Shown here piece after piece: positions 1-60,609 of a stretch of 64,000 nucleotides of DNA. This DNA comes from Isurus oxyrinchus (Eukaryota), in assembly GCA_026770705.1 (NCBI GenBank), contig JANJGN010000034.1, forward strand, positions 4,092,001-4,156,000, written 5' to 3'. Each line of letters opens with the position of its first letter. The first letter of the stretch is position 1. Under the pieces are notes generated by a model, which was not told the DNA's origin, did no database searches, and saw only the letters and a list, made by a program, of their open reading frames with translations. A program made the translations under genes and the position numbers.

Positions 1-3000
1 TAACTGACAAATTAAGTGTTTGTTCTTGCTTGGGGCCATTGGTTTAAAAACGCGTGAGTAATCGAACAGAAATTCTATTGACATGGCTATTAAAAATGCA
101 ATGGTTGTCCGAAACTGGCCGGGAAATTGGAAGGTCTGGTATGGCGAGGATCGGATATAAAGTTTTGGAAAATCAATCAAAATTCCTTATTTAATGCGAA
201 AGAGATACCTAGTAATAGCTCCATGATTTAGAGAGAACGGGAGCCTATCAAACATTCATCAAACATGGCAATATATTTTAGCAGTGATGGACTTTAACAG
301 AGAATATGGAACAGAAAAAACGTGAGACCACACTGGACTCCTGCCTTGCTCTATGCCGTTCTGCTTGCGTGGGTACCGCCAGAAGTCCCAAACGCACGTT
401 TCTCTGTAATGCAAATGTCATTCCTAACATGCAAATTAATCTCCAGAAAACCAAGAGAATTCCGAACATCAAATACACTATCTAGGATATTCTGCTTGAA
501 CAGTGCTTTTTTGAGCCCATTAAAATTCAGAGCATTCACGACACAACAATCATCAGGTTACTTGATCGGTTGCAAATGCTCTCACGACAACCATTTGAAA
601 AACGAAGGACACATTTAAGCAACCAGAAAAATCAGAATTGAGGTCATGATTTAGGCTGTTAATGCAATTTTTAATTTTGATCTCCAGAGACCAAGGAACA
701 GAGTTTTTTTTTCAATTTATGTCATAATAATTATTCAGGTGTAATGTGGCAAATATTTATTTTGGACGTATGCATTGGAATTTGATGGAATGGCATTGAA
801 TGGCTATTTGCAACACGATTGCCACGTTCTGGTATTTGAATTTAGTGAGCTAGGCTGACATGTATGTTTGATCCCGCTGATTTGCAATCGCTGTCATTCA
901 GAAAAGCTTGATTTTTAAGGTGTAATTCCAGTTCCCAAACCTTATTTTATTCGCTTCAACGGTCTTTTACATTCTCATCCCTTTAGAATTTTAGAGAAAT
1001 TGGGTGGCTCGTTTCCAAAACAATATTGAATTCTCGCCACCTTGTGTCCAAATTTCAACTGCTATAGCAGAATGTGTAAACATATTCTCAGAAATTCATT
1101 TATCATTCTGCTTTTCAAAGACTGATCAACTAGACAAATAATGGACTAGTTGACTTGATGTAGGATCTTGTTTTTTGCAATCCCTGAATGATTTTGGGAA
1201 GGTTCACCTTACTGTGAATAACATTCATTCCGATTTGATATTGTTGTTGTTCTACATGAATGATTCCATAACAACAAACAACAAATACTCAAATACGTCC
1301 AATGTTTTGCATTTATCAAACTGTGAACTGTGGGAATTATGATGCAAAACACGTTACTAAGTTTATGAAAAGCATAAAAATTCTCCAGATCATCCAATTA
1401 TCGGCCATTTTATTGAAGATTCCTCCCTTTCAAACTTTTTTGACTGAATATTATCATTGTTTATCCAAATCATTTTTACAGCTCTACAAAATGGACGAAG
1501 CTGTGTCTGTGAATGATGCTCTGTCTGGGAGTGTCAACGGGATATGAAACGGCGAGCGGCCTTGCCAAATTGTACGTGAAATATGGGTTAGTTTTCAGGA
1601 CGATTTGGATATTCAGAAGTATAAAGTTGACTCTGGCAGAACTGACAAAATGCAAGGAATGTAAAGCTATACCTTTGTGCTTTTATTTCTATATACTTGT
1701 CTTTCTTAAGCTTTGGGAGAAATTGAGAGATAGTCTGAGATGAAACAATGAGCGAGGCAGACAGAAAGAGAGTGAGAATGTTGGATTACAAAGGGGTGAA
1801 TTGGAAGGAGTTTGATGGGGAGAGAAATCTTCGCCAGGATGAAGCGATTGCCAATATTGGACAATTGGCTTTCAGTGAAGTCACATCATAACCAATTTGA
1901 TGTGTCATCTCATCAAACGAGTGCCCTGGGACTGTTTGTACTTTTGATGCTGTGCTAATTGTTCAGTTAAAGTTAAATGTTTAGAGAAATACACGTTTTA
2001 ATGCATTTTTTACGACTCACATTTAAAGAAGAAAGGAGACATAAAGGATTTTTCTTTTGGAACAATCGCATAAGACAGCCTTGGCCAGCGACTCTGTTTC
2101 AAATGCATGCATTGGCAAATGTTAGGAAGGAAATTACGGCTTTTAGCATGAAGTTCGTCAAAGGCGATTTGCTTCCTCTTCCACATAATTAATTGCAGAA
2201 ATATCTACCCGTCAAAATCCGGTCAAGGAAATTGCTCGCCCAACAGGCAATCAATTAAAAAGCAGGTAAAGTTCGAAGTGACGTATACCTTTTGGTGATG
2301 AAATGTCTGCTAATTTACATAATTTTTCTGAATAGCAGCACGTAAATCAGATGAGGAAATGAACTAAGTATACGTCTTCGGATGCAAGGGAGGTAAATGT
2401 ACATGGAACTGAAGACAAAACAATACGTGAGAGTTTTTAAGCACTGTGTTGATAGCAAAGGCAACTGTTGCTAAATTTTACTCGAGCATAATGAAGGCCC
2501 GTTGAAGGAGGGTCACCTTTTTTAAGGTAGGATTGAAGGAATTGCTTTTCTAATTCGCAGCAGTTTCATGTAATTTCTTGCTACTTATTCAAGCATCGTT
2601 TTAACATGATATATAAAATTTGATATAATGATACTTGGAGTTAAATTATGGAGTTCGTTGAACGACAGACTACACATTGGAAGGCAACAGTACAATTTTT
2701 GTTGGAAAGCAGCACATGGAGTTGAAATGATTGTTGTTTGGAATGGACTGAATTGTCAACTGTATGCCCCGCGTGATGTTAATTCATTTGAAGGTAATAG
2801 TACAGAAATTGAGATTTGATAGCAATATAAAATAAAGCCATCATCCAAATCTGAACTTTTAATTGAACTGGCTGTAATGATCACGAAAAGGAATATTGGA
2901 ACAGCATTCAATATTCCATAATGGAAAATGAGATCCTGCAACAACTTTCGAAATCAATCAAGCAAAAATCTACATTTTCACTGAAAAGGAGGCACAGTAA

Positions 3001-5133
3001 CATCTAAATGATTTAGAAAGTATTGGCTCCAGTGAAGCTACCATCTTCAACAGAGATAGTGAAACAGAAATCTCTTGCTCGGAATCTCTACACGTGGAAT
3101 AATGTCTTTCAGTTTGAGTGGGTTCCCTCGCATGTACCAAAACCATGTGTTCCAGAAATGCATGCGTCATGCCCACAACGTAGGTGATACGTTAGAAAGC
3201 GAGATAATGTGCCATCCTGACATTTTTTTTCAGAATGTTTGAGCAGCCCCTGAATCATCACCCTTCAAATTTAGGGCAATCGTTGCAACAGCAGTAATCA
3301 GGAAATGTGATGCCTTGGAAATGCTTCCACCGCAATCGATTGAAAAATAAAGCACACAGATTTAATGAGTTGATAATATTCCAGGTGTGAGGTGATTATT
3401 GAAGCTGTTGATTAAAACGATTAATTTGAAGTACAAACACCAATTTAAGGAGCTGTTTTCTACGTGTAGATTCACAAATATTAGATTGGGATACATGCAA
3501 CCTGCCTTCATATAACAGAAGTTTACGACTTATTGCTTAAGATTGAAAAAGTCCGGATATATGAAAGGATTGAGAGAGGACTTTGTTTATTTTACCCCCG
3601 CTGATGTACACTAGCTGTTCGTGCAAAATGTTTTAACTTTTTCATAATGCCCATGTTTGACACAAAAAGAATACAGAGTAAGATCAAAATGAGTCAGAGA
3701 GTGTGGACGCAGCCAATTATTCGACAACCATTATAATATATGCAACGAGTAATGGGTTGTGATGTGGGTTGTGATATATAAAACATCCGAGTGGAAAGTG
3801 GAACGGTGCCTATATTTATGCCCTTCTGTTCGTGTGGGTTTCCACTGGTACTCCAAACTGATAAGGCTCAGGAATGCAGGCACCACACCTGAAATGCACA
3901 TGAATTTCCAAGAAGGCAGATGATTTCGAATCTCCACATGACGTAGCAAGTGCATGTTGTTTCAGCAGCACTCCATTTAGAACCATTAAAATGGAGAGCA
4001 ACCTAGAGAAAATCAGCCATCAATACATTTGATCTCTGGGAAAGGTTGCCACTGCTATGGTTTGCAAAGGCAATGGGCACAGATTTACCAGGCTGATAAA
4101 TATCCAGGTTTTGAGGTGATGAATTATTATGGTAATGCAATTAGTTATATTGATCAAGTCACATCAATTGAAACTGCTATTTCAGATGGTTCCATAATGT
4201 GCTCCCACGATTACGGTTTCAATTATCTAATTGTGGCAGATGAACTCTAAGTTGATATAAATACATTGTGGGGCTAATTGCAGGTAAATTTCAAAGCCCC
4301 ATTATATGGATGGAGTGAGCTCGGCCTACATTCATATATGGGCACGGTTGAATTTCACTGAATATGGATTCAGCTTATCTTGATTTTACATTTGTTTTTT
4401 TCAGGTCCCAAATCTCATTTAACAAGCGTCAATGCTCAATAAGACCCTTCTCCTGCCACTAAGTATTTACAACCCTTGGCCACATCATTTCTAACTTAAA
4501 ATTCAACTGCCCGACCTTGAACTCGGGATTTAAATTACTGATAACAGTATCTGGCACATGTCTGCAAAAGTTCCACTGAGCATGGTTCTTCTGGAAAACT
4601 GTTAACAACATAATTGTAAAAGATCTGATGATTGGCACAAATATAGAGCTTGTCGACCTGACGTCAGGTGTTGAAAGATCCCTGAAGCAGTTTGGGATGG
4701 ACCATCTTATTATGAATACGATTCAAAACAATTTGATGTTCTTTTTTTTTACCTTTATAGCATATTTTGCAAAAGCAAACAACTCAACTGTACATAAATA
4801 TTTCCAACTTAATCTTTGTTGGGAGAGTTTGGTTGTGAAATACTTTGCTTAAGTTATTAAAATTCTGATGATTCTCCAGGTTCTTCCAACCATCAATCGC
4901 ATTGTTATTGTTGAATTTTCCTGTCTTGAATCTTTTGTGAATAAAATATAGTCTTTGAACTGTCAAGAAATTTTTGCAAGCCAAATGGCTTGAAGCTGTG
5001 CCCTTTAATGTCACCTTGACATCAGGTGGCATGAGACATCTATCAAAGTAGAACTAAAATATGGGTGTGTTGTCAGGATGGTTTGGATTTTTACAAATGT
5101 AGCTCTCACAAAACTGACAGGATGTCCAGGCAT

Positions 5134-5363: not shown

Positions 5364-5870
5364 CCAGTTATTAAGTACCATTTACATTTCTTGAATTACA
5401 TGTAATTGAATTTTGTGCAACATACAAGTTGTTATTCAGAAGGAGGAAAAAGGGAAAGAGAGAAGAGGCGCTTCCAGTCAACGACCAAATGACCCAGGGA
5501 TATAAATTTCAATGTTGCCTTATCAGCTATTAGTGATGTATCTTCAGGAGCAACTTGACAAATTGCACTACAACGTCCCGTCAAAGCAGTGTCCGCATTG
5601 ATGTTAGCTGTCGCTCCTGTGGTAATTGATCAACTGAAAAACATATAGATGCAAATAAATCTTTGTTTTTCTTTTTATGATTCAGAGTTAAAGAAGAAAG
5701 GAGAAGGTGGGGGTCACAACATTTCCTTTATATCAAATGCATAAACAAGATTGGCGAGCTAACTGTTTTAAAAGTATCTAACTGTTCACTTTGGTAAATA
5801 GCTTTCCAGTGTCAGGAACAATTTTTCTGTCGGAAATCATAAGCAATGCGTTTTCTCTCACTAATGATTA

Positions 5871-6450: not shown

Positions 6451-6454
6451 TGCG

Positions 6455-9311: not shown

Positions 9312-9332
9312 AGCTAAAGAAGAAGGAAGAAG
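9312..9332 (+). pseudogene. Putative 21-nt micro-exon (representative copy), ELKKKEE in phase 1
   Basis: tttacgattcAG|agctaaagaagaaggaagaag|GTaata. AG/GT are retained in ten copies (see findings). Confidence 0.45.
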
Positions 9333-12027
9333 GTAATAACATCTTACCTTTTTTTTCGGATGCATAAAGCACCAATGGCGAGCAAACTCTTTCCAGTATA
9401 TAAACTGGCCACTTGGACGAATGGCATTCCAGTACCTGGAATGGTGTTTGTGCCGGAGATCAAAGGCAATGTGTTTCCACTTCCTTATGATTAATTGCAT
9501 GAGATTTCTGTCTGTCCATGTCTGATGACAAAAAGTACTCTCGCAACTGAGAAGCAATGCCTAAGCACAGGGTGGTGAAACTGATTTGGAGCTACGGACC
9601 ATTAAATTGAATGAGGGTGAAGTGATTGCTAATTTATGTTACGCTTCTGAGTAGCAGACTGTAAATGAGTGGAATAAATGTGCCAAGTTTAATTCTTCGC
9701 AGCATTGGAGGTAAAGCTGGATAGAATTGAAGATAAAGCAATTTTGTGATTATTTTCCTGTAACTGTGTGGACCGCCTTTGCCCAATTCAGCTCGACCAT
9801 CATGAAAGCCTGTTGAAGGAGGATCATCTATTTAAGGTGGAATCGAGTGAATTGCCTTTTTCTCTATTTCACAGCAGTGTATCATAATATATTGGGACTT
9901 TTTCAAACAACCTTTCAATATAATGGCAAAAGAGGTAAATTTAAATATTGCTTAAATACTGAGGTTCATAGAAAGACATATTCATTAAAAAAGCAAAAAT
10001 AAATTTTCTGGGAATAAAGCACACGAGTTTGAAATGTCATTTGCTATTTCGAAGGGCAAAATTAGAATTGTATTTTCTTCCTTAACGTTGCTGGCACAAT
10101 TCTTGTTTATTGTACAGAACATGAGATGAGATGGCAAAAAAAGAAACACAGGACGAACGTCAGAGCCTGGACTTTTAATTGCACGGGCTGCAATGATAAG
10201 GAACAAGGTTCTTTGGAAGGCGTACAATCTTCTTTAATGGAAATCTGATCCTTTAATAGCTCTCAAAACTTCAAACAAAAATCCACATTTGATGTGAAAA
10301 GGATGCATGGTAATCGCTATGCTACACGATGCAGAAAGAAAGGTCGCCCGTCATCCTTGCATCAAACTTCGGAATCAATATTACCAGAAATGGACTTTAG
10401 CCGTGATTGTGGAGCAAAAAAAATCCTTAAGAATATGGACTTTTGACCTGTGTAGCTTCATGACTTTCGGCTCTTGCGGGTTTCCTGTGATGTTCCAAAT
10501 GCATGTGGTTCAGGATTGCAGATGTCATGCCAGATTGCATGGGAATTCAGAATCTCTTAAACAAATAATGAGGATATGCTGTTTTAGCAGTGCTTGATTT
10601 AGTAACAATCAATTCAGGGCAACCTGGACATTTGATGTTTTGGAAATACTTTCATCATTTTCGTTTCGAAAATAAAAAGACACAGGTTGATAATACTCCA
10701 CATTTGAACTGATAATTAACGTTGTTAAGCAAGTTACGTACGTTGATCCCCACACACCAATTTAAGGAGCATATACAGATGATGCCATAAGGCTTTTCCA
10801 CCAATACTGTTACAATATTTCATGGGCAACCATGGCGTCTATCTAGATATAACAGAAGTGTAGGGCAAATGGTTCAACGATTGCAAAGTCGCTGAATATG
10901 GAGGAAGTGAGTGAGGCCTACATTTACATTTTCCGGTGCTAAATTGCACTGACTGTCGATTCAGAATCTCTTCATTTAAATAAGATATTTAAGTTTTCAA
11001 AACTGTTTTATTTTGCTTCCAAGCTATTGATGATTCTCCTCGCTTCAATTTATATGAGCCGTTTGCTATCTCCATTCTTACTTAAAATGAAATTTCCCCG
11101 TTCCTGTTGTCTGTTTTTCTTTTGTCATTAACAGAATCTAAAACAATATTTTCACAAAATTAATTTACCATAATTCATTTCAACAACATAGCGAAACATC
11201 TGACTCTCTATGCATATGTAAAACGAGGTGTCTTGACGTCAGGTGCTGATTCAAGCACGTTGGGAAGATTCATCTTATTATGAATGACATTAAGAACACC
11301 TTGATGTTGCTTTTTAACTTCATCGCTGTTTACGACCAACACTGTTCCGAAATATTTCAACAGTTATATCAAACGCCTAAGTAGAAATATTAATGCAACA
11401 TACATTATTGAATTTCTCAAAAGGCTACAGGATCCCCAGCTTCTTCCAACCATCTATCAAGTTGATGAAAATTGCTGTCTTTTAATTCTTTCAGGCTGAA
11501 GTAGTGGCGTGAAGGGCCGAATCATTGCTACATCTCCACCAAACACCTTGAAGCTGTGTTTGCGAATGACAGCTTGACACGACATGGCCTGCAGGGCGAT
11601 TTCGATGTTCAGAAGTATGCTGCTAATTCTCACAAAACGGAAAAAGTGCCAGGAATTTTAAGTAATAAATCTGTGTTTGATTTTCTATTCAATTGATTTG
11701 CAAACAAGCTGCAGAACATTATTGGCTTAAACGTGGAGAATTGGGGATCGATCTTTCTATTTAAAATCGGCAAGATAAATTATTTTGTGAGATGGTTAAA
11801 CATTCTTCTAACAGTATAGCAAGTGAGATAAATTGTTAGCAGAGCTTTGAACAACTAGGTTTCATTGAATGGACAGTGACGCAGGTTTTAGTGATGTAAA
11901 ACGCATTGAGCTGAAATATAATTTGCTGTAAAGAGGAAACATTTGGATCAATTCTTAATTCTAAATTCGTGATGCTGGCTCATTTCAGGGTAATATCCCG
12001 GATCATAAATGACATAGCGATTTATGT

Positions 12028-12224
12028 TTTAATTCTTACAGGCTGAATTAGTGGCATGAAGGGCCGAATCATTGGTACATCTCCAGCAAACCCCGTGAAG
12101 CTGTGTTTGTGAATGTCAGCTTGACACGACATGGCTTGCAGGGCGATTTTGATGTTCAGAAGTATGCTGCTAGTTCTCACAAAACGGAAAAAAGGGCCAG
12201 TAATTTTAAGTAATAAATGTGTGT
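12028..12224 (+). repeat. ~197-nt near-identical direct copy of 11481-11676
   Basis: 'tttaattctt.caggctgaa.tagtggc.tgaagggccgaatcattg...ttttaagtaataaat.tgtgt' is present at both sites. Confidence 0.95.
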
Positions 12225-13548
12225 ACAACAAAATTCAGATTCTGGACAAGCTATTGCATGCTTATGAAATTATTTTGGTTGGTGCATTGGGAAGCTTTTC
12301 AATCTTCTGCAATGGAAATTTATAACCCATACCAACTTCTGGAAAATCAATGAATAATCCTTTAAAATTAAGGCCATCTAGAGAACAGCATTTACTGGGA
12401 CATTTGATCTCTTGGTCATGAGCACACTGCTAATATTTGGGGAAAAAGTGGATTCAGGTATTACAGACTGTTTAAAAAGGCTAGAATGTATTCTCAAAAT
12501 TGAATTAGATATTTTGATATAGGCAGATAAATTTAAGGAGCTGAAATTCATGGTGCCATTATGTTTTTCCATATTGACGGTGACATTTTTTTTAGAGAAG
12601 GAGATAGTTTAAATTCATAGAACCGGAGATTAAGGGCCATTTGCAGAGCGAAGACAAATTCCCGGAAATTGAATGGATAGATTGACACCTTGAACAACAG
12701 TTGTCCCCACTGAATGATACTAAATGTGGATTCAAAATGTCTTGATTTCAGCAAGATATTACAGGGCACAAAATCCAAATGTAACTTTTCAACAGTGTTC
12801 AACATCCCCCCGACTTAACGCCTTTCAGCCCTTGCCCATTTCATTCTATTCCCACCTTCAAGTCTATTGTTCATTTGATTATAACATCATCTCACAGAAT
12901 ACTTTCTAAAATCAACGTGTCATAATACATTTTCAATATTAGTATCTAATAATACATACATATACCTGATCATCTGCCAAGATATAACACTATATGGCTG
13001 GTTACGTGATATTGATTGATTACATTCCTGCAAGCAGTTTGGGAATATTAACCAGGTTATTAATAATATCCAGATAGGTGGATGTTGTTTCGTTTAGTGT
13101 CTAATTCAATAACAGCATGCACCACCACTGTACATTCCTAAGATATGGCATACATCAAACGCTCCATTCGGTGAAATATGACCCAATACACAATACTAAA
13201 TTGATTAAAGAGCTGATAATCTCCCTTGTTCTAACACGTACCAGTAAAGTTGTTGAATTTCCCCGAATGTGAAACCTTTCTCACAGACTAGTTGACTTGG
13301 AAGTGCGAAATTGTTGGTTAGTCCTGGACATTGGGCTCAAGTTTGTCTATGAATGCCAGCTGCAGAGGAATTTGCCAAATATGATGCCAAAATATATTTG
13401 AGATATGCGTACCTGCAAAGTTGATTTGGCTATTAACAAATGTACTGTTAACTCTCACAAAACTCAAAAAATGCCACGGAGGTAATGCAGTAATGTTTCG
13501 ATTCCATGAATATATAATTACATTTTGTACAGGTCGTCTGGAATTGCT

Positions 13549-13640: not shown

Positions 13641-15567
13641 ATCCTCGAAGTGAAGGATGAATCGGAATACATTGAAAGTTGATAATTTTACTCCAAAGTC
13701 TTTCAGAGAATTATTTTCAAGAATAAAGTGATTAAGCGAAGTTTGATACCTCATCAAAGTAGTGGCCCGCGTTAGTTTCTACCCTCGATGCTGTCTGGTT
13801 ATTCCCAAATCGAAAATTAAGGTGAATACATTTTGTATGCCATTTTAAACATCAGAGTTAAAGAACAAGGGGGACGGTAAGAATATAACTTTCTTATTAT
13901 TACATAACAACTGCTTACAACCTGGTTGGCGACCAATCTGTTTAAAGTTTAGGCTCTGGTTACATTGACGAATAACCTTCCAGTATCTGCAATGATATTT
14001 GAGTCTGAGATCAAAAGCAAAGCATTTCCCTTCCTAATGACTTACTTCAGGAAATGTATGTCCATCAATTACTGAAGTAGGGACAATCAACGACAACGCA
14101 GAGGGAGGAGGGCGTGATTTTGAGCTGCGGGCCGTCAATGAACAGTGGCAAATTGACTGTTGATCTTATAAATTTTCCAAAAAGGAGAGCGTAAATATAA
14201 TAAACAATGGGCAACATTTAGATCTTCGCAGGCACTAGAAGTAATACTGCATGAAGTCGAAGCCAAACCAATGCTTGTGATTTATGACTCAGCTGGGTGG
14301 GCAATCAAGCTCCTGTTGGCCAATGTATTCATGAATAATTAACCCATGTTCAAGGGGATTCAACTGCTTAACGTGGAAACGACAAGTGTCTCTTCTATTT
14401 CGCTGCATTGCCATGGAATAATTTGTGAATTTGTCAAGTAGCCTTTTAATATGGTTGCAAGTGAGGTAAATTGATAGTACGACTTACAGACTGGACAAGA
14501 AATACGTAGCCTGGATAGGCAAAAACAGTGTCTTGACTGGAATACAGCAAATGTAGTTCAAAAAATGCTCTTAAATAGGCACTGATGAGTCAAGTGTTTT
14601 CTGTTTCTAGGTGTTGCTTGCTGTATTGAGCTTAAGAGAAAACAACCTGTGATGGGATAGCAATTAATGATACAGCAAACTTCCGGACATCGGCACGAAA
14701 TTGGACGGTCATTCCGGACATTCAAAAGCACTTATTCCGAAAGGCTTCCATCTTCTGTAATGGATACTTACTTCGTGCGCAAACTGTAGACAAATCAGTC
14801 TGGCATTTGCATTTGATGCGAGAAGTCTGCACAGTACGCCATAACTTTGGTAGTATGAGCCAGACAGTCTTCTTTCATACATTAGATTTTGTGCCACGAA
14901 TAACATACTTTAGCAGCGATTTTGAAGCAGATAATAACTTACTGCTGGCAAGAGACTTGGCTTTCAGCTTGCGTGTGTGTTCACTCCTATATTAAAAATC
15001 TTGCAGTTCAGGCTTGCAAGCGTAATATTGAAATGAACATGAATGACCAGAAACACAGATATTTCAGCATATCATGAAAACATGATGAGCACCTGCTGAT
15101 TTTGCAGTGATTGGCTGAGAAACGATTTCAGTTAAGGGCAAACTGAAGAACAGCAGTCTTCTGGACTTTTGATCTAATAGAAAAAACATGCACTGCAACC
15201 TGTTGAAAAGCAGAAGGCACAGGCGTTAGAAATTAATATCAGTCCAGTCATGAGGTGAAGGATTATGTTTAAACTAAGAAAATTCACTGTGCGAATTTCA
15301 TTTGGCTATTTGCAAGTGTACCGTTAACACTCACAGATCTGAGAAAATGTCAAGAAGGTAAGTCAGTGCCTTCATATTTGCGTTTCTCGGGAAGTGTTAT
15401 TTGACCAGGACAAGACAGAGAGAGAGACAAAGTGACAGAGATTGAGAGACCAGGAGAGAGAGGATAGAGAGAGGGAGGGAGGGATCTTTGTAATGATGTA
15501 CCGAAAGGGAAGAAACGCATGTTTGCCCATGCTGTTTTTTTTTTCAATGATGTTGCTTCATGAACCT

Positions 15568-16814: not shown

Positions 16815-16899
16815 TTGAGATATGCGTACCTTGCAAAGTTATTTTGGCTATTAACAAATGTATTGTTAACTCTCACAGAACTGAAGAAATGCCAGGGAG
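16815..16899 (+). pseudogene. Putative leader/hydrophobic exon relic (representative copy), LRYAYLAKLFWLLTNVLLTLTELKKCQG, phase-1 donor
   Basis: Open frame ending at GTAATG (16900). Homologous GTAA donors at 1661, 13482, 15358, 26327, 29044, 30946, 36836, 38654, 51269, 52420 and 56250. An in-frame ATG was seen only in the copy at ~51184. Confidence 0.4.
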
Positions 16900-17329
16900 G
16901 TAATGCACTAATTTTTATCATTTCCATGAATATATAATTGATTTATATACATGCCGTCTAGAATATCTGAGGGGGAGAAATATAGAGAGAGATAGATTGA
17001 TAGAGAGAGAGAAAGAGACCGAGACAGTGAGAGAGATAGAGAGATATAGAGACAGAGTGAAATGAAGGGAGAAGTAGAGAGGGAGATCCTCGAAGTAAAG
17101 GATCAATCAGAGTAGAAGGAAGATTGCCATTGTTGCTCAAAAGTCTTTGAGCGAAATCTTTTGAAGGATAAATTGATTGAACGGGGTTTGATGCCTCATT
17201 AAAGGAGTGTTCCGCGTTGGTTTCTTTTGCCGATGCTCTCTGGTCATTCCAAAATCGAAAACTAATGTGAAGGGAAATACATTTGTTATGGTATTTTTTT
17301 GCTTTTCATTGAAGTCAGTTCATGAACCT

Positions 17330-40922: not shown

Positions 40923-41253
40923 AAAGAACCATATTGCCAAACGTAGAATGCCACCTGGCCAAAGCTGCCTGTCCTGTATTTTTCTATTGTCTGTCCTTGG
41001 TAATTGTTCAATCTCAAATAAATCTGGACTGAAAAACATTTTTATTTTTGTTTTAACCATTCAGACCTGAAAGTGAAGGAGGAAGGTTAGGACATTACAG
41101 TTTTTTTTTTATGACGAATGCATGCAACACCTTTAGCGAGCAACTAAACTTTCATCATTGATAAAATTAACGAATGATATTCCAGTATCCACATTGATGT
41201 TTGTTTCAAACGTCATTGGCAGTGCATTTTCTCTCCCTAATGATTATTTCCAG

Positions 41254-42487: not shown

Positions 42488-43867
42488 AGTTGATCATGGT
42501 GTTTATCCTGATCGATGATTTAATTATAGAAAGCATCGCCAATGTCCCTAAATGTATCCAATGTTTAACATTTATCAGAGGCCGCATTAGTGGAAAAATG
42601 ATATAAGATGCATTACTATAGTGATAACAGTGCTCATGAATCTCCAAGTTCATTAAACCAGCTATCTTGATGTTGAACATTCATTCTTCTAAATTCTATC
42701 TTGCTAAATCAGTGTCCTTGGCGAGCCATATCATTGTCACTTCTGGACTACGTGGTTTGAAGCTGTCTGCCTGACTGACAGCTTGATATGAGCTGGCCTG
42801 ATTCGTCTACAAAGTCGATTTTAAACATGGATTTGTGTTCGTGATTACTTGGATGTTCACCAGTAAAATGTTAACATTTTACATAACTCTGAAAATGCCA
42901 GGAGGTTAACGCGGTAACTTCGCTTTTGCATTTCTCTGCAGTTTACATTTCAGTAAGCCGTATTATAATTTTCAGAGCGAGAGTAGGTGAGAGAGAGAGA
43001 GAGTGCTAGTGGAGATGTGTGTTTATAACAAAGAGAGTGAGACAAAATCCTCGCAGTGAACCACCAACCGAAAGACGCACATGATTGCCAGTAGTGGCCT
43101 ACTACATTTAAACACGGGGCTCTTCATGGTCAAGTCGACATTATGCAGCGTCACATCTCGTCACATCAATGTACGGCGTTTGTTTCACTTGACGATATAA
43201 TGGCAATTTTACAATGGAAAATTAATTTGGAGGGAATTACAATTCGTTTTCCTTTTAAAACTTCATAGCAAAAGAAGAAGAAAGAAGCCATGTGCATGGC
43301 ATTTGTCCTTTTGTAATTAATGCATAACTTCTGATTGGGGACCACACTGTGTTTTATATTTTTTCAACTTTCGGACATGAAATTATTTTTCATAGAGAGA
43401 GGGTTTGAGACAGGCAGTGTTTGTTTGTGTGTGTGTGTGTCTGTCTCTGTGTGTGTGTGATAGAGTGAGAGAGAGATCCTCGTAGAGAAGATCCGACGTG
43501 AAGGCGCACATGCTTGTTTATCGTGGCGTATTATCTTTCAGCAAGGCCTCTTCATGAACAATTCGGCATAGCGTAGCGTCATATCAGGTCATACCACTGT
43601 CCTGTTTTTTGTTCCTGATGACAATGGTGTGGTAATTTTTAAACGAAAAGAAAGAAGGAGGTAATTTCAATTCATTTCATTTCGAACAAGTTCTGAGTTA
43701 AAGAAGAGAGAAGGCAGGGATATATTATTTTTATTTTTACCATGAATGCTTATAACACGATTGGTGAGCACAATGTTTCAAACTTTGACTATGTTCACAT
43801 TCGAGTATCCTGTGCGGCGTTTCTTTTGGAACCCAAGCACTACACGTTTTCTGTTCATGTTGATTAA

Positions 43868-45290
43868 TCATTTGCTTGCAAAAATCTTCTGTATTTCTGA
43901 AAAAAATACACAAATGCCTACTCTTTTTCGTGTTGCTCTCAATAAAACACTCGTGAAATTAACAATCACGGTGTAGTATTTGCAATTTCTACTGTAAAAT
44001 GAAAGCAGCGCTGATTGGCTGGCCGCGGTGCCATGGAGAATGCACCACTCGTGATGACTGATGGTTAACTGCCAAACAATGCTTGGACACACTGAGCATT
44101 ATTCAGCAAACGTGATGGATTCGCAGAATAACATCTAATGTTCCATACTGTGTCTAGATTTTCGCAAGGAAGCATTGGTCAGGCACGTGAAAGGAATAGC
44201 CGCTGGACTGTGGATTTTGATATGATCCGGCAATCATTGGGGCGTATTGCCATCATTCTTAAAATCAGAAAGGCATTGAATTTCATACACAGGTTTACTT
44301 CTTTGTTTCAGAAGCAGAACAACTTTGTGGGATGACAGCAGAATCCACTGAAAGACGAAAAGCAATCCAACTGGAGTGCAGAATAGCAACGTTAGGAATC
44401 GATCTGCATCCCGCTCTCAATTGTTCCGATTTAGATGATGGAAGCTGTGTACTTCGTATATCGAAAGTTAACGGTATGAGGGCAGCCCATGAGATTGTGT
44501 AATATACAGCACATAATGATCTGATCAGGGTAGCCATTAACCTGCAGGGGGCATTTGATAACAGCCTTATGTCAACGTGGAAGTTGCCAAAAATACAAAT
44601 GTTATAGTGTGTTGGTTTCTAAGGAAATCTAAGGAAATCACACACATAGAACAGGGAATGAACGTTTGCGGTGGACATTGGCAGGGAATCGCCTGGCTAA
44701 TGTCTCAACCTATCAGTGATGAAGGGGCAGTTCATCTGAATGCTCCAATTTCAAAGGCGATTGGGAGAGCAAATGTGAGGCCATTATGATAAGTAAGGAG
44801 ACTGCTTTATGCTACTGTGGTTTAACTACATGCTAAACATTATTCTCAACTCGGAAAATATACAAGAGAGGAGATTCGGTGTAATTTCCCCAAGCCATGT
44901 TTCTCTTGGAACCCCAAAATATTGTTTGTGAATTCTGGGCCTAGCACGGATCCCATGGCAAACTTCTCTATTTGGGCATGGTGCCTTTAAAAATGAATTC
45001 AACTGAGTGACCTGCGGACTTCACAATATCCAGAAGTATTAATTCATGCAATTGTTGCCGGTCTAGATGGTCATCGTAAATTCTGTTAGCGCAAATGCCG
45101 CTGTTTCCCTTCAGCGCCACATTAACGAAATGGCCAGTAACATCAGTTGAGCAAATGGCCACAGCATTTTGTTCAATATATTAGCCATGGATGCACTTGG
45201 CAAACATTAGTGAACCAATGGCTATGTTCAGGTAGCGAACTGTAAGACGCACTCTGGCAAAAGTTTATCACCGTAGATAAGACATGTCTC
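43868..45290 (-). mobile_element. Old 5'-truncated Penelope-like element (RT + GIY-YIG relic)
   Basis: ORF 44968-45162 'ICSTDVTGHFVNVALK...VEFIFKGTM' resembles the RT motif SFDIxSLFTNVPL..EFSFN. 'AMGSVLGP' at ~44940-44962 resembles GVAMGSPLGP. Confidence 0.88.
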
Positions 45291-47212
45291 ATTTTAGAAA
45301 CCTTAATTACTAGTTGTAAAATATTCATGATCGAAATATGTCGATGTAGGAAAGTATTCTTCAAATTGAAAGGCAAAGACAAAGCACAGAATGGTGTACC
45401 TGATGTATAGCTGCCTATCTTCAACATAAATGTCGAGCAAATCACTGTTAATAAAAAAAAACGATTTCAAATAGCAGAGCGAACATCAATGATGGAATTG
45501 GACTAACTTAAGATCTTCAGGGGCCTCAGCGTTAAAGAGGGATGATGTCCAAGACAAAGCAATGCAGGTGACAGTTTTTGTTGCTCCGACTGGATGACAA
45601 TGAGGCGATTATTGCTCAAATGAAATGGAGCATAATGATAACTAGTTAATGGAGGATCACGAGTTTAAGGCTACAAAGAGAAAATAGTTAATTCTCTCAA
45701 TTTTGCAATTGTGGAAAGCAGAATTTATTCATTTCTTCAAGGAGACATGTAACGTGGTGCCAACTGAAATTCAGTGACAAAAGTCCATTGAGCGTCGATT
45801 TCGCACCAAGCTAGACTCCGACTACAGAGACAACAACACAATCTTTGATGCAATACAGCACGTGGATTTTAAATATTTTGATTCGAAGGGCCTGAACGGT
45901 CAAGTATTTGCTCTTCCTAGGACATGCTGCCTGATTGCAGGCTAATAGAGCCGACAACGACAGCGAGAGAGAGAGAGAGGGAGGGAGAGAGAGAGAGAGA
46001 GAAGGACAATGCCAGAACTGATGGACAAACCGGAAGACGCATATGATTGGTAGTTCTGACCTATTAAAATTTAGCGACGTGTTATCATCTACATATTGAA
46101 AAGAACGCAGCGCCACATTTCAGCAAAACAATTCCCTGCGCTGATTTCTGCGTTAAAAGTTGAATCGAAGATAGGTGGGAATAGAAATACCCTCTTTTAT
46201 TCCGTTAATCCATTAAGAGCTAAACAAGAAGCGATCACTTAAGGAATACTGTCAAATCATATAAAATTTGGATCAGCGCTAGCTACGATGCTTCTGCCAC
46301 TTAAAACATTGAGTAGATTGCCATCTTATTTCTGAAATAAAATTCAATTGTTCCGATGCTGAAGCGGCGATTTCATTTGTGGTTTTCAGAATGCCCAGAA
46401 ATATATAAAAACAAAATATTGTCATTCCTCTTTCTAACGGCGAGTAATAACAACATAGCCAGACTTCTGATGATTGCACAAATATTTCACTAGATGACGT
46501 GATGCCAGATATTGATACAAGCAGTTTGAGAACGTCCAGCTTATAATGAATTACATTCAAAGCAAGTTCATGATGTTAATAACAAAATACAACGGACGCT
46601 GGAAATGTGAAACAAAAACAAAACATTTGGAAAAAATCTCCGCAGGTTTGAGAGCACCAGAAGACAGAGAAATCGTGTACAGATTAGGAGTCAGCACGGT
46701 CCTTCATTAGAACAGTTGATGATATCGTTTATGGAGAAGATTGATTCTAGAACAGCAACCAGCGCAAGTGCTTCAAAATCACGCAAAGGTTTCACGTATA
46801 TCGAAGCCCCATTTGTGGAAAGTTGATGTAATCTACATTACTAAAGTGAGTAAAGAGCTCATGAATTTCCAGGTGCTTCCAACCAGCTACCTTGTTGTTG
46901 AAGGTTTTTGCCTCTGTATACCTTCTGAATGAACCAGTGTCCTGGACCAGCCAAATCTTTGTCCTTGATGCGCCAAATGGCTTAAAACTGTGTCTGAGAC
47001 TTGCAGCTTGAAATTTCCTAGCATGACACATCGGGAAAGTAAATTTTAAATGTGTTTTCTTTTGGGATTCATTCGATTTTCAACAGCATTCTGTTAACAT
47101 CTTACACAACAAGCAAAATGTCAGGAAGCTAATGCAATAACTTTGTGCCTGCATTTAATTCCAATTCACATTTGAGTAAGCCATATAGTACTTTTTAAGA
47201 GCGGGGGCGTTA

Positions 47213-47420
47213 NNNNNNNNNNNNNNNNNNNNNNNNNNNNNNNNNNNNNNNNNNNNNNNNNNNNNNNNNNNNNNNNNNNNNNNNNNNNNNNNNNNNNNNN
47301 NNNNNNNNNNNNNNNNNNNNNNNNNNNNNNNNNNNNNNNNNNNNNNNNNNNNNNNNNNNNNNNNNNNNNNNNNNNNNNNNNNNNNNNNNNNNNNNNNNNN
47401 NNNNNNNNNNNNNNNNNNNN
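47213..47420. other. Assembly gap (208 N)
   Basis: Run of N at the position where other monomers have the (GA)n tract. Confidence 0.99.
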
Positions 47421-47784
47421 AAGAAGCAACCGGAAGACACACATCATTGCTTATGGTGGCATATTAGTTTTCAGCGAGGGCTCTTCATAAACCATTCAGC
47501 ATAGTGCGGCATATATCGTCATATCAATGTCCCTTTTTTTTTACTTTCAGTTGACAATACTGTGGCACATTTTTAATCCAGAAGAAAATTGGAGTCAATT
47601 TCAATTAATTTTCTTTTTATAAATACAGACTTAAAGAAGAGGGGAGAATGGAGGGACAAATATATTTTTCTTCTTACAATGAATGCATGTAACACTATTG
47701 GTGAAAATACGTTTTCAGATTTTTTTCAATGTTCACCTTCCCGTATCGCAAGGCAATGGCAAAACACTTTCTCTTCATAATGAT

Positions 47785-48975: not shown

Positions 48976-51900
48976 TCTCTTCTTAGCAAAGTAACGAAAA
49001 GTTGCAGGAAATTCCGGCATGTTAATATTCAATGTAGGCAAGTATTCTCAGAGTTCATTGGCAATGCGAGGGAGAGACCTGTGTACGAAGTGCAGTGCTG
49101 TGTATCGTGAACATGCATGTCAATGAACTCAGTGTGTATTTTAAAACATGATTTTAAATAGCAGAGCATAAAGCAGAGAAGGGCTAAGTTTTGATCTTGA
49201 CAGGCATCAGAGGTAAAGACGCTTGGCCTTCCACTGGAATCACTAACGATGACATAGTTTTTAGAATCCATCTGTGTGATAGTGAGGCGACTGTTGCTCA
49301 ATTTAGCTTGAGCGTAATGAATACTCGTTAAAGGAGGTTCACGTGTTCAAGATTAAATAAGAGAATGGTTATATTTTCTCCATTTCACAGCAATCCAATG
49401 CGATATTTAATGACTTTTAAAAGAAGCCTTTTAATGTGATGCATAGTGAGAAGAAAACACACTGGGTCTCAGAGCCTGGAGTTCGCACAAAGGCAGAATT
49501 CAATTGGAGAGACAAAAACATATTATTTAGTGGAATACAGCACATGAAGTTGGAAGGGTGAAGGTTCCAGTTTTTGCTCTTCCTAGGTGAAGCTTGCAGG
49601 GTAGAACATGATGTTGGGCAGCAATTGACAACAGAACAAATGTCTGAGGCCGCACTGGAATTTGTACTGTCTGCAAAGATCAGCTGCAGAGACAATGTGA
49701 AGTTAACTAATCTTCTGTAATAGAAAATTAGTCCATACAGTATCCGTCGAAAACACAATTACAAATCAGCTATTGATGAGAATTGAATGCTCAGTAACAG
49801 CTGCATGCTTTATGGAATAAGCAAGCCAGTCAAACTTGCACAAAACTTTAGATTGTACGCTTCAGGGAGCAGAAACTAATGAGTAGATTGTGAATCAAAA
49901 ATCACCTTATTGGGCACCGACCTCTCAGCCATCATAGCTCCAAGCCCTGCAGATCGTGTGGGTTCCCTTTCACACTCCATATGAATGTGCTGTAGCGATG
50001 CACGTGTAATACAATAAATGCACATTAATATTTCGAAACACAGGATTTTTTTATGTTCAAATACCCATATCTCATGTCTGCTGTGTGAGTAGCTGTTTGA
50101 TCTATCATCATAAAAGTTCAGTGCAATATGGAGAACTGCAGTCATCAGAACAATTGATTTGTTGGAAATACTCCCACAGCTACCATTTGAAATACAAAGG
50201 ATGCAGGTATAACAAAATGGTGAAAATCCAAAGGAGAAGAGATGATTAATGCTGTTACATAATTACTTATTTTGACAATTGCATCAGTTGAAGAGCTTTT
50301 TCCTTTCTGATTGTGCAATAATCCACGTTAACGGTGGCAACTATTTGTTTGGAATGCATGAATTTAATATCAATAAAATGGCATTATAAAGACAACTTGT
50401 TTTGTGATGGCAGACTCCTTGAATATGAATGATGTGCGTGAGGCCTGCATCAAGATGTTTCCCTGCTGAATTACACTTACTGTGAATTCAGAAAACATTG
50501 ATATTAAACATGATATTCCAGGTCACAAAAGCTATTTATTGTGCCTTGATACAAATTGATATTACACTGCGTCTAAACCATTGACCTCTTGGCCAATTTG
50601 TTTCTAACCTGAAGTTCATTTTTTTTCGCTCCTGAAATCGAGTTATCATTTGAATATAACATTATCTCACGTAATATTTCAAAAAGCCATGTATCATACT
50701 ACATTCGAAATACTAGTAATTAATAACTTAGCCAAACACCTGATCACCTGAACAAATAAAGCACTCGAACGGCTTGGTGTGTGAAGTTGATTGACTACAA
50801 TCGTAGAAGCAGCCTGGGAAGGATCACCTTGTTATGAACAATATTCAGAATATGTCGATGTTTTTATCTTGTTGTCTGATTCTATAAGAAAAAAAAAAAC
50901 AAGGCTAGTGTACAGGAACATTTCCAAAGTTTGGCATATGTCAGACGCTGCATTTGGAGGCATATAACATAATATACGTTATTAAATTGGTGGAAAGACT
51001 GATGAATCATTATATTCCTCCAAAGATTATTCAAGTTAATGAAGTCTTCTGCCTATGAAACGATTCCAACTGAAACGTTCCCCTGAAGAGCGAAAACTTT
51101 GTATAACCTGTACCAATGTCTTTTTCTTGTCTCTGTGAATGTCACCTTGACAACAATTGGCGTCATATGATGCCAAAGCAGAGATGAGATATGCCTAAAC
51201 TGACCGGTTCATTTGTTTACTAACAAATGTACTCTTAACTCTCACAGAACTGACAAAAAACCGGGAAGGTAATGCTGCATTTTTTCTTTTCCATGGATAT
51301 AGATTTGATTTTTGAGCAGGCCGCATGGTGCTACTGATAGAGAGAGGCAGATAAAGAGTTAGAGAGAGAGAAGGGAGAAAGAGCAAAACGTAGAATGGCA
51401 TCTCAGCAAAGCGTTTCCCCGTGTTGCTTTGCGTTTTATATACTATGTTGAATTGAACCTAGCTGAGAAGAGAAGTATTTTCTTCAAATTTATTTTACCC
51501 GTTCAGAGCTAAAGCAGAAGATAGAAGGGAATGAAGGGAGCTGCATGCCTCATTTAATTCGCTTGAACGCTTTTTTATGATCCACCGGCCTTTATAATCA
51601 TTTGAGTGCTTGACCATTACTTTTCAAAAATAATATTCAAATGCTCTATTTCTAATGTCAGGACATCATTTGATGTTAACAGAATCTCCATCATGGTTTA
51701 AAAACATCAAAATATTAATCCTTTTTTGAATGACGAGTAATAACAGCAGAGTCAATAATCTGGTCATTTGAGCAAATGTAGTACGAAGTGACTTGATGCC
51801 AGATATTGACATAAGTATTTTGGGAATGTCCACCTTTTTATTAATGTAATGCAGAATAGGTTTATGATGTTAAAAACAAAACAAAAAATGGATGGCTAAA

Positions 51901-52539
51901 ATCAGAAACAATAACAGAAAATGTGGAAACATCTCAGCAGGCCTGCGGATAGAGAAACAGAGTTAACGTTAAGTGTCAGCATGACTCTTCATCCGAGCAG
52001 CTGATGATATTATTTATCTTGATGGATCATTCTGTAACAGCAAGCGACGCCACTTTAATAAAATTTATCCAACACCTCACATTTATCTAATGCTCATTAT
52101 CGGAAATATGCTGTAATATACGTTTTACAAAAGGGGTTAAAGAGCAGAAGATTCTGCAGATTCTTCCAACCAGTTCTCGTGATATTGCAAATAGTTGATG
52201 TTAAGTTATTTGTTACGGCAACAGCGTCCTTGACGAGCCATATATATTTAATAATCCTGCATCAAATGGCTTGAAACCATGTCTGTGAATATCCGATTAA
52301 CATGAGATACCCTGAGATCTCGTCAGACTAGATTTTAAATATGCGTTTGTTTTATGGATCACTTGGATATTCACAAATACACTATTAACAACTTATGGAG
52401 CGCAAAACGTGCCACGAAGGTAATGTGGAAAATGTGTGCTTGCATTTCTATACAATTGATATTTGAGCAACCCATGTGCCTTTTTTCAGAGAGAGAAAGA
52501 GAGCATTAGAGAGAGGCAATGGGTGTATATGTGTGTTTG

Positions 52540-52597
52540 TGGTGGTGGTGGGGGGGGGGGGGGGGGGGGGGGCGGGGGGGGGGGGATGCGGTGGGGG
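52540..52597 (+). repeat. G-rich/poly-G tract within the monomer microsatellite
   Basis: (GGT)n followed by long G runs. Confidence 0.9.
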
Positions 52598-53014
52598 AGA
52601 AAGAGAGAGATACGGAGATAGAGAGAGTTCCTCACAGAGAAGAACCAACCCGGAAGTCGCACATGGTTGATTAGGGTGACCATAGCTTCCATCGAGGGAT
52701 CTTCATAAGCAATTCGAATTAGCCTATCGGCAAATCTCGTCATACTGCTGCCCCCTTTTGATTTTTGTTGGCAATGCTTTGGCAAATTTTGATCGGAAAA
52801 TAAACTTGGAGGGAATTTCCATTCGTATTGCTTTTAAAAATTCAGAGTGAAATAAGAAGGCAGGAGTTAAATGCATGACATTTTTTTTCACTATGAATGC
52901 ATGTAATACGTTTGGTGAGCACACGGTTTCAGAATGAGTCAATGTTGAACTTCCAGTACCATGTATGGCGTTTCAGTTGGAAGCCAAAAGCAACACATTT
53001 CCTCTTCACAAATC

Positions 53015-54450: not shown

Positions 54451-57400
54451 GATTATTTATTAGCCTGCCTTAAAGCCTGGAGTTGCACAAAGACAGACTT
54501 CAATTGGAGAGACAGCCACCCATGCTTTTGTGGGATAGCACATGGACTTGAAATATAATTTTCCTCTTTGAAAGGTCTGAAGTGTCTATTGTTTGCTATC
54601 CTAGGTGACACCTGCAGGGTAACATAGTAGAACACGAGCCCTGGCAGAAATGAACAAAACTACAAGCGTCAAAGGCTGCAAGGGAATTTTGAATGTCAGC
54701 AATGATCGGCAGGGACATTGTGAAGGCAATCTATCTTGTGTAATGGAAAATGAGACCCTATAGCACCTCTCTGATAAACAAGTGGAAATCTGCATTTGCT
54801 GAGGAAAGAATGCTCAGTAATATCTACTTAATTTATAAATTAAGGATGTCACTCAACCTTACATGAAACTTTAGTTTATATGCTACAGGCAAAATACAAT
54901 AATAGAAATTATGAAAAAGACAGCACCTTATTGGAAATTGCACTCTCAGTCAGCGTTGCTCCATGCAACGGTGCTGATGCGGGTTCATTCTGACACTCCA
55001 AAGCCAGGAATGCAGGCGGCAAGCACTAAATGGACATTAATTTCTAGAAAAACTGAACATTATTAAGTTTCAAATACCCGTATCTCAAATATGCTGTTTG
55101 AGCAATGCTTGATTTTTCATCATAAATATTCAGGGCAGTCTAGAGAACAGCCGCTATTGCATCTGCTGGAAATTCTCCAATTGCCTGCATTTGAAATACA
55201 AAGGACGCATGAATAACAAATTGATGAAAATCCAACTGTGATGAGATGATTAATGATGTTTATTAAATTACTCATTTTGATTTTTACATCAATTGAAAGA
55301 GCTGTTTTTGATGGTGCAATGACGTTTTCACACGCTAACGGTGACAAATATTTGATTGGAATGCATACAGTCTGCACTCATATTAGGACAGTGCAAGGAC
55401 CAAATACTTAGCAATAGCAGATACCCAGAATGTGAACGAAGTACATCAAGCCTGCATCGAAATGTTTCCCCATTGAATTGCAATTACCCTGGATTCAGAA
55501 TGCCTTGATTTTGAACAAGAAATTCCACGTGTCAAAAGCCATTATTACGCTTCCACACTAATTGAGGTTACAATGCCTCTAAGCCTTTGAGTCCTTGGAC
55601 AATTTGGTTCTAACCTATTTTTTTTTCCTGGTTGAAGACGAGTTTCCGTTTAATGATAACATTATCTCACAAAATATTTCTAATATCCGTGCACCATGCT
55701 ACATTGGCAACGCCAGTAACTAATAATTTTGCAAACAACTGATCATCTGAACAAATACAGCACTAGAATTGTTCGGTGTGTTATGTTGATTGATGACAAT
55801 CGTGCAAGCCCTTTGTGAAGGTACAACTCATTAGGAATCCCATTCACAATAATTTGAAGTTGTTTGTCTTCTTTCATGAATGTATAACAGCAAGCAAGGC
55901 CACTGTACAGGAACATTTCCAAGGTTTGGCATATGCCAAACGCTGCCTTAGCAAAAATATAACGTAATTAACAGTATTAAATCTGTTCAAATACTGATGG
56001 TTCCAAATATTCTTCTAAAGACTAGTCAAGTTGATGAAGCATTATGACTTTGAAACGTTTCTGACAAAAATTGTGTCCTTGAAGAGCGCAAACCTTGTTT
56101 AATCTGCATGAATGCCTTCTAGCTGTCTCTGTGAATGTCGGCTTTACATGTTGCCAAGGTAGAGTTGAGATATGCGTACATTGTCTGTTTGATGTGGTTA
56201 TTAACAAGTGTACTGTTAACCCTCACAGAACTGGCAAAAAGCCAGGAAGGTAATGTTTTATTTTTATCTTTTTCCATGGCTATGCAAATGATTTTTGAGC
56301 AGACCGTCTCGTCTTATTGATAGCCCGAATCAGAGGGAGAAAGAGAGAGAGAGAGAGAAAGAAGAGAAGTAATTCCAGGAAGTGATGTTACCGTTGGGAG
56401 ACGCAAATGCTAGCCGTGCTGCCTTTTAGACATTTAGCTTAATCTCTTCATGTGCAATTGGACAAAACACTGAGTGACATGTCAGCAAAGCATGTTGCCC
56501 CGTTGTTTGGATTTGTCGGAGCATTGGCGATTGTTGAGTCGAGGACTGCCTTGAAGAGAAATATATTTTCTATACCTTTTGTCCATTCAGAGCTAATGAA
56601 GAAGGGAGAAGGCAAGGGTAAGCTTCAAGTCTCATTTAATTCGCTTCAACCATCTTTATGATCCTCCAGCATTTTAAGCTTTTGGGATGTTGACCATCTC
56701 GTTTCTGACATTACATTCATGTGTTCTTATACTGAAACAAAGACTTAATTTGCTGTTAATGGAACATCTTCAAGTAATTCCAAAACATCAAATTCTTATC
56801 GTTCATTCGAACTGCGAGAAATAACAGCAGAGACAAACAACTAGTCACTTGCACAAATATTTGCACGAGGTGACTTAATTCGTATATTGATAGAAGCAGA
56901 TTGGTAATATCCTGTTTATCTGAAGCACATGCAGGAGAAGTTTATTATGGTAAAAGAAAAACACAAGTGATGGGTAAAATGTGGAGCTAAAACAACATAT
57001 GTGTTAGAATTTCAGCAGGTCCGACAGCACCTGGGAGAGAGAAACTGAATTAACGTTACGAGTCAGTGCAAATCTTCATCAGAGCAGTTGATGAGGCTGT
57101 GTGTCTTCATTAATGATTCTATTACAGCAAACAACACCTCTGTATCAAAATCTAATCAACATTTCTATATATCAAATGTTCATTATTGGAAGCATAGTGT
57201 AACATTCATTGCTAAAGATATTGTGGAGCTGATGAATCTGCAGTTTCTTCCGACCACTTTCTTCAAGTTGAATACACAAGTCCTTAGAAGTAATTCTAAC
57301 TGAAACAGTGTCCTTGTAGAGCGACATATTTATCACGTCTACACCAAATAGCTTGAAGCCGTGTCTGTGGAAACCTGCTCAACATTTAACGGCCTGAGAT

Positions 57401-58069
57401 CTCGAACAGTGGATTGCAAATATCGTTTTGTTTTCGGGATTATTAGGATATTCACAAGGATGCTGTTAACTTCTGACAGAACTGACAAAATACCAAAAGG
57501 CTGAGGCAGTAGCTTTGTTTTAGCTTTTCTATTTAATTGATATTGGAGCAAGGAATATGGTATTAGTGAGTAAGAGAGAGAATGTCAGGGAGAGGCAGAG
57601 TGAGTATGTGTTGTATGTGTGTTTATCAGAGAGCAAGAGAGGGAGAAGGTGAGAGAGAGGGTGAGAGAGAAAGAAAGGAAAAGATCCATCCTCGCAATGA
57701 ATAACCAGCTGGCAGACGCATATATGTGCCTGTTGGTTTTCATCGAGTTCTCTTCATGAACAATTCAGCTTCACACCTTCTCAAACCAGTGCCCCATGCA
57801 TGCTTATGTGATGATGCTGTGGTAATATTTCAATCGAGGAGGAACCTGCAGAGAAATACCATTCGTTTTATTTTTAACCAGTCAGAGCTAAAGAAGATTC
57901 GAGATGGTAACAACATCATTTTTTTTTTCTTTTTCATAAAGAATGCAATATACAAGGTAAGTGAACAAGCTGTTGCAGAATCTAACAATGCTCAAGTTGC
58001 CAAAATAACTTCCAGTATCCATTATGTCAGAGGCCAAAGGCAACAAACTTTCTCATTGTAATGATTAGC

Positions 58070-60596: not shown

Positions 60597-60609
60597 AGTT
60601 AAACTATAT

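Follow-up and report, generated by a model that had tools for sequence, protein, structure and literature searches.

The 64,000-nucleotide (nt) stretch of Isurus oxyrinchus DNA analysed here (contig JANJGN010000034.1, C34:4092001-4156000; "the window") is probably made of tandem copies of a two-exon segment belonging to one ~820-kb cartilaginous-fish gene. This gene would encode a coiled-coil rod of ~2,300 residues with a B30.2 domain, and about half of the repeated exons would be dead and the rest in use. The original prediction had seen in the same repeats a decayed cluster of receptor-like genes, each with a hydrophobic exon followed by a 21-nt micro-exon, or micro-exons still in use, and had pointed to the 21-nt heptad exons of butyrophilin and chicken B-G genes. 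That pointer is supported by our results and so, for about half of the copies, is the continued use, through the selection found on intact copies. What we add is that 21/43 copies in the window keep their splice sites, and that intact and broken copies of the array can be told apart by the selection acting on them. In total, 1.06 Mb of sequence around the window was examined; flanking positions are given as extended window coordinates, with a minus or plus sign.

Intact and broken copies of two 21-nt exons

The window is the middle of a tandem array that spans about -22 kb to +103 kb, with multi-kb monomers that are ~57-80% alike. Each monomer is a ~3.5-kb segment carrying two types of 21-nt exon, T (ELTKCQE-like) and K (ELKKKGE-like). 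Profile searches seeded with intact copies found 38 T and 37 K copies in the array (75 in all), 43 of them in the window (22 T, 21 K). Among the AG...GT candidates on the + strand of the array span, 21 nt was the lone length peak (29 candidates, versus 0-8 for the other lengths between 15 and 45), and the - strand held two candidates of that length; as the copies are related by duplication, these counts are not independent events. The exons are symmetric, phase-1 and seven codons long, with a hydrophobic residue at position 2, mostly Leu (87%), and Cys or a polar residue at position 5.

All nine of the 21-nt sites listed in the original prediction have AG and GT and no stop in phase 1, as does its 18-nt copy at 21757-21774; the 27-nt copy at 56591-56617 is also stop-free in phase 1, its old donor being GC and an in-frame GT lying 6 nt beyond. 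The five copies it gave as broken are all broken, but three of them start one base later than proposed (2021, 35128 and 43267). Its estimate that about half of the copies had decayed agrees with our counts, as 22/43 window copies and 40/75 array copies are broken, which leaves 35 intact copies in the array when the 27-nt rescue is counted. Splice sites were scored with simple weight matrices of our own, and some 'intact' copies, at 1640, 19379 and 24878, have weak ones. The idea that each monomer keeps either its T or its K exon, never both or neither, was dropped after a hand count (15/26 pairs, ~13 expected).

Selection was assessed on terminal branches of trees built from intron flanks, with ancestors set by parsimony and the flank rate as the expectation. 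Intact copies of the array had accumulated 41 amino-acid-changing substitutions versus 86 expected (ratio 0.47, p 4e-8), and 21 silent ones versus 21 expected (ratio 1.0). In broken copies, the figures were 93 versus 104 expected for amino-acid-changing substitutions and 28 versus 24 for silent ones. Splice positions outside those used to define a copy as intact were changed in 15/210 cases in intact copies and in 60/237 cases in broken ones (p 2e-7). Intact copies are under purifying selection and broken ones are near neutral, and a pure neutral satellite is ruled out by the halved amino-acid rate and neutral silent rate of the former. AG and GT were also retained jointly (35/19/5/16 over the 75 copies, odds ratio 5.9, p 0.002), and the flanks of intact copies were no closer to the consensus than those of broken copies (0.63 versus 0.66). 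A tree-free comparison of intact window copies with the broken-copy consensus found 39/298 non-synonymous (N) and 30/77 synonymous (S) sites changed (p 1.5e-6); over all copies, the N/S rates in this test were 0.134/0.336 for intact and 0.195/0.337 for broken copies, with p 0.008 for the difference in N. It is therefore likely that the intact half of the copies remains in use.

The hydrophobic exon proposed to precede the K exon has a real donor, but the exon itself does not stand: it starts only 21 nt upstream of this donor, at a CACAG-type acceptor, so that in the AG...GT scan its last 21 nt are the T micro-exon with an acceptor of its own. Upstream of that acceptor, 9/18 intact T copies have a stop within 24 codons, conservation at the three codon positions is about equal (0.74/0.80/0.74), and intact copies show 0.160 changes per non-synonymous site versus 0.122 per synonymous site. 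No good in-frame upstream acceptor common to the T copies was found. The T-rich stretch is intron sequence that reads by chance as hydrophobic codons, and a leader or membrane exon within the monomer is ruled out by the stops and by the N and S rates.

The predicted gene and its relatives

The + strand carries phase-1 micro-exons over the interval between about -82 kb and +722 kb. Outside the array, lengths of 27 and 36 nt prevail and often alternate, one exon of each together coding for 21 residues, that is, three heptads. Downstream, the lengths of + strand candidates peaked at 27 nt (79) and 36 nt (88), versus 4-20 for other lengths, and the - strand gave 11 and 13 candidates of these two lengths. 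The phase-1 frame was stop-free in 83/88 (27 nt) and 87/95 (36 nt) candidates on the + strand, and in 7/17 and 10/16 on the - strand. An exon scorer trained on strong + strand candidates returned 260 raw matches on the + strand versus 10 on the -; removal of overlaps left 239 predicted exons (106 of 27 nt, 86 of 36 nt, 38 of 21 nt and 9 others), a number that is approximate because of this training, the null matches on the - strand being those 10. The predicted chain peptide has 2,337 residues, is rich in K, E and L, contains six prolines and has a hydrophobic period peak of 3.5.

The chain leads to an intact B30.2/SPRY exon (SPRY PF00622, E 2.9e-14; best PDB match BTN3A1 B30.2, E 2e-20), and no further close B30.2 exon was present inside the gene span among the best 150 matches. 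At the other end, the first identifiable coding exon, of 111 nt, and the first 36-nt exon are each clearly homologous to sequence at the next paralogue's 5' end. The predicted gene spans ~818 kb, with the window in its 5' part, and we infer that all of its exons are joined in one mRNA.

C34 has five close B30.2 exons, at 2.71, 3.47, 4.82, 6.40 and 7.50 Mb. We sampled 20 stretches of 10 kb from the region between 2.7 and 7.5 Mb; every one had micro-exon candidates on the same strand as the B30.2 exon that comes next, with 1-7 raw matches per stretch and three in total on the opposite strand. Five such genes thus appear to fill ~4.8 Mb of the contig, one neighbour being head to head with the window gene. 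Two downstream paralogues (C34:4827800-4850400 and 6433700-6455800) have an upstream block of ~20 kb in common, with ~78% identity, past which the farther one has 21-nt T-like exons and, in the 80 kb examined, no 111-nt exon. Separately, ~140 of the best 150 B30.2 matches cluster on C21 at about 83-118 Mb, with ~30% identity, and are likely an ordinary TRIM/butyrophilin cluster.

Relatives were found in chimaera, skate, electric ray and sharks, as database models XP_055510696, XP_038668997, XP_038672306-10, XP_069775384-90, XP_042191566-8, GCB73088 and GCC29436. These models fall in the same B30.2 clade as the window gene, have a coiled-coil N-terminal part and 178-945 amino acids, and are mostly named 'TRIM39/58/69-like' or 'A33-like' though they have neither RING nor B-box. 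The six that were scanned all carry SPRY or SPRY and PRY only, with no RING, B-box or immunoglobulin (Ig) domain. A tree built from 29 chosen B30.2 domains split the family (16 rows) from TRIM/BTN (13 rows) with 100/100 support (midpoint root), and the part of skate XP_055510696 before its SPRY domain aligned to the last 121 amino acids of the chain with a score of 125, which 0/200 exon-order shuffles reached (best shuffle 124). On this sequence evidence, the predicted gene would belong to a clade of cartilaginous-fish coiled-coil and B30.2 proteins. Isoforms of the chimaera, catshark and electric-ray relatives, again database models, differ by internal blocks of 6, 7 or 9 amino acids, as skipping of such exons would give. 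Searches for longer relatives, among proteins of up to 2,000 amino acids, gave TRIMs, BTNs, multi-SPRY proteins and one 945-residue member of the family, and no model that neared 2,300. No description of this family was found in the open-licence literature.

The tail of chicken BG proteins is encoded by many 21-nt (some 18- or 24-nt) exons, 13-36 in number, each with a split first codon and one heptad, with Cys in the coil (PMC4046983, PMC5938342); a B-G zipper protein is reported there as a regulator of the actin-myosin interaction, and in butyrophilins the heptad exons precede a terminal B30.2 exon (PMC4046983). The predicted gene resembles chicken BG in its many 21-nt heptad exons (38 predicted in the chain, 21 intact in the window). 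It differs in that BG has IgV and membrane exons and no B30.2, while the predicted gene has a B30.2 end, no IgV was found, and ~240 exons of 21, 27 and 36 nt extend over ~820 kb with dozens of pseudo-exons among live ones. A 27-nt exon before B30.2 is a family feature of butyrophilins, and the predicted gene would share with them the phase-1 heptad micro-exons, the 27-nt exon and the terminal B30.2 exon, which has its best structure match there. Unlike butyrophilins, which have Ig domains, a membrane helix and few heptads, it showed no Ig match in the upstream open reading frames (ORFs; 119 on the + and 117 on the - strand) or in the six relatives; its B30.2 domain also falls in a clade separate from the sampled shark BTN and TRIM, and, unlike the TRIM B30.2 class, it has no RING or B-box Pfam match upstream, no RING pattern in its span and none in the six relatives. 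Enterophilins, which are mammalian, consist of a soluble heptad-repeat rod and B30.2, but are far shorter than the predicted rod. By analogy, the gene may function as the tail half of butyrophilin or B-G genes does, on a several-fold larger scale.

Alternative readings

If the array were a decayed cluster of separate FcR/FCRL-like receptor genes, one per monomer, each with a leader exon ahead of a 21-nt one, its tandem arrangement and phase-1 21-nt exons would be accounted for, as would the hydrophobic reading of the T-rich stretch, which is free of stops in 9/18 intact T copies. However, this stretch is without coding constraint and without a shared upstream acceptor, and the 21-nt exons code for charged heptads repeated dozens of times in series, not for half of a split leader. 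None of 103 window ORFs matched a Pfam family, and pattern searches found no Ig pattern in ORFs of >=85 amino acids over the gene span and no RING pattern in it. With FcR/FCRL membership as defined in PMC7940838, the array shares a 21-nt exon, but has no first leader exon with a start codon and hydrophobic core, and no downstream Ig-domain exon was found in these searches. Finally, the monomer is an internal two-exon segment, the exon chain is unbroken on both sides of it, and exons of the same style run on to a single B30.2 exon, so one gene per monomer was rejected. The receptor-cluster reading is already largely refuted, and we give it hardly any credence. A less distant alternative is that the gene is real but the window array is now skipped and decaying, the selection signal being left from the past. 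The broken half of the window copies and the weak sites of some 'intact' ones would fit this, and so would the core splice columns, which lose bases near the flank rate over all 75 copies (39 versus 46, p 0.14, and 37 versus 43, p 0.24). The expected conservation of splice sites and frame above the flanks is thus seen in the amino-acid rate and extended splice positions of intact copies and not in these columns; changing only slightly less than the flanks, they also fit frequent exon death. These columns, together with several other results, weigh against a gene in full use: the tree-free N/S contrast between intact and broken copies was not significant (p 0.15 for all, 0.07 for the window), broken copies too had N below S in this test, and the selection signal, being a mean over long branches (~0.17 changes per site), is no proof of present-day use. 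The exon count is uncertain for the reason given above, and the other four of five relatives did not beat exon-order shuffles. RNA was compared as assembled contigs, with 21-nt exons below their word length; no run with RNA over 27500-37400 of the window was listed, contigs of runs X1, X3, X4 and X5 did not cover the B30.2 exon, and those of X1, X2, X3 and X5, compared with a 10-kb locus where 36-nt exons abound, matched it only in short stretches outside exons, none of this being evidence either way. In none of these runs did RNA cover the gene or show a junction, and its splicing as a single transcript is a prediction. Nevertheless, the terminal branches of intact copies combine half the neutral amino-acid rate with a neutral silent rate and a kept extended splice signal, and both length changes among window copies with two sites (18 and 27 nt) are in frame, which makes a wholly skipped array improbable.

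A membrane or secreted protein of the butyrophilin/B-G kind, with a leader, Ig or membrane exon that was missed upstream, is unlikely, though less so than a skipped array. It draws on two further points against a soluble rod: the 111-nt exon opens, in phase 1, with a short hydrophobic stretch that is kept in a paralogue whose ATG lies elsewhere, and the skate model starts with a signal-like hydrophobic stretch (12-residue hydropathy 2.66). Additionally, an Ile/Val-rich open stretch near -97400 has homologues in two paralogues (C34:4833600 and about 6439500). On the other side, this stretch has no conserved splice sites and may be either low-complexity DNA or a missed membrane exon; a paired donor/acceptor search of the gene against its paralogue found no coding exon upstream, so that no signal-peptide or membrane exon was placed, and the sole clear conserved donor from this search, at -93372 and kept in three paralogues, closes a stretch with a stop in the required frame. 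The neighbouring gene begins on the opposite strand within ~10-30 kb, and the interval that separates the two head-to-head genes gave no Pfam Ig or RING match in its ORFs (119 on the + and 117 on the - strand). Five of the six relatives lack a hydrophobic segment, and all six have SPRY/PRY as their only domains. Judged from these sequences, the product is most likely cytosolic.

Array features and the proposed rod

The exons and pseudo-exons of the window, together with the end exons of the predicted gene, are collected in Table 1.

Table 1. Exons and pseudo-exons of the window and of the predicted gene around it (window coordinates unless stated)
Feature	Position	Strand
111-nt exon, first identifiable coding exon	C34:4005537-4005647	+
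T-type 21-nt exon, sites intact but weak	1640..1660	+
K-type pseudo-exon, AG and GT both lost	2021..2041	+
T-type pseudo-exon	5112..5132	+
K-type 21-nt exon, intact, ELKKKGE	5686..5706	+
K-type 21-nt exon, intact	9312..9332	+
Two T-type pseudo-exons, at 11636 and 12183	11636..12204	+
T-type pseudo-exon, no acceptor	13461..13481	+
K-type 21-nt exon, intact	13856..13876	+
T-type 21-nt exon, intact, DLRKCQE	15337..15357	+
T-type 21-nt exon, intact	16879..16899	+
K-type copy position, truncated, exon part replaced	17317..17337	+
K-type 21-nt exon, intact	19379..19399	+
T-type pseudo-exon, no donor	21357..21377	+
K-type exon, intact, in-frame 18-nt variant	21757..21774	+
T-type pseudo-exon, 22 nt, no donor	23270..23291	+
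K-type 21-nt exon, intact	24878..24898	+
T-type pseudo-exon, no donor	25749..25769	+
T-type 21-nt exon, intact	26306..26326	+
K-type 21-nt exon, intact	27806..27826	+
T-type 21-nt exon, intact	29023..29043	+
K-type pseudo-exon, no acceptor	29426..29446	+
T-type 21-nt exon, intact	30925..30945	+
T and K pair, both pseudo-exons	34681..35148	+
T-type 21-nt exon, intact; intron to next K exon 344 nt	36815..36835	+
K-type 21-nt exon, intact	37180..37200	+
T-type 21-nt exon, intact	38633..38653	+
K-type 21-nt exon, intact	41065..41085	+
Six pseudo-exons: T 42885, K 43267, K 43696, K 46218, T 47108, K 47629	42885..47649	+
T-type 21-nt exon, intact	51248..51268	+
Three pseudo-exons: K 51507, T 52399, K 52846 (in-frame stop)	51507..52866	+
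T-type 21-nt exon, intact, ELAKSQE	56229..56249	+
K-type exon, in-frame extension to 27 nt, old donor GC	56591..56617	+
T-type pseudo-exon, no donor	57480..57500	+
K-type 21-nt exon, intact	57886..57906	+
195 predicted micro-exons, mostly 27 and 36 nt	+103 kb to +722 kb	+
Terminal B30.2/SPRY exon, intact, 660 kb downstream of window	C34:4816507-4817027	+

Related insertions with reverse-transcriptase-like peptides, which we take to be LINE-like, lie in the window at 17300-18900, 23300-24400, 26900-27700, 31700-32950, 38950-40500 and 59500-60600. Four insertions occupy the T-exon place upstream of the K copies at 19379, 24878, 27806 and 41065. Since these K copies make up a single clade, the insertion was probably copied together with the monomer. 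Dispersed-repeat fragments were found at 5134-5363 and 6455-8849, with inverted arms (6458-7181 versus 8082-8809), and 7239-8048 matches a retrotransposon frame, presumably Penelope-like, at +593 kb. An intron at 27593-27634 holds a telomere-type repeat, CCCTAA x7. Outside the window, a younger sub-array of ~1.2-kb units (74200-79200) has an intact T exon and, in 4/4 short units, a K exon that has lost its donor. A decayed coiled-coil-like coding fragment with several stops lies in an intron at about 115900-116400, and near-identical retrotransposon fragments form inverted pairs in introns at about -12000 to -9700, +250000 and +593000 to +596000.

We propose that unequal crossing-over multiplied the ~3.5-kb T and K segment. 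As each 21-nt exon is one heptad, any subset of them would splice in frame and in register, and gain or loss would keep both. Copies that lost a splice site would have turned into intron and drifted, included copies would have stayed constrained, and the length of the rod would change through exon birth, death and skipping. The rod itself may be a parallel dimer in which exon residue 2, Leu, takes heptad position 'a', and exon residue 5, Cys or polar, takes 'd'. A helix rises by 1.5 A per residue. As to function, our tentative suggestion, drawn from analogy, is a ~350-nm cytosolic tether or spacer that would hold a B30.2 binding head, as a butyrophilin tail or a B-G 'zipper protein' might without its membrane part.

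For cartilaginous fishes, we lean towards the view that they possess a gene family not described before, whose members measure 0.5-1.5 Mb and rank with the most exon-rich vertebrate genes. Their B30.2 head would sit on a rod built heptad by heptad by duplication, death and alternative splicing of micro-exons, and the window would be a record of this turnover, its live and dead heptad exons lying next to each other under differing selection. As nearly all of their exons are shorter than 40 nt, annotation misses or shortens such very large genes. With 75 related copies of two exons, the array is a natural experiment on exon birth and death, in which questions of the splice code and of micro-exon recognition become testable, and it is also relevant to how butyrophilins and chicken B-G genes came by their heptad-exon tails.

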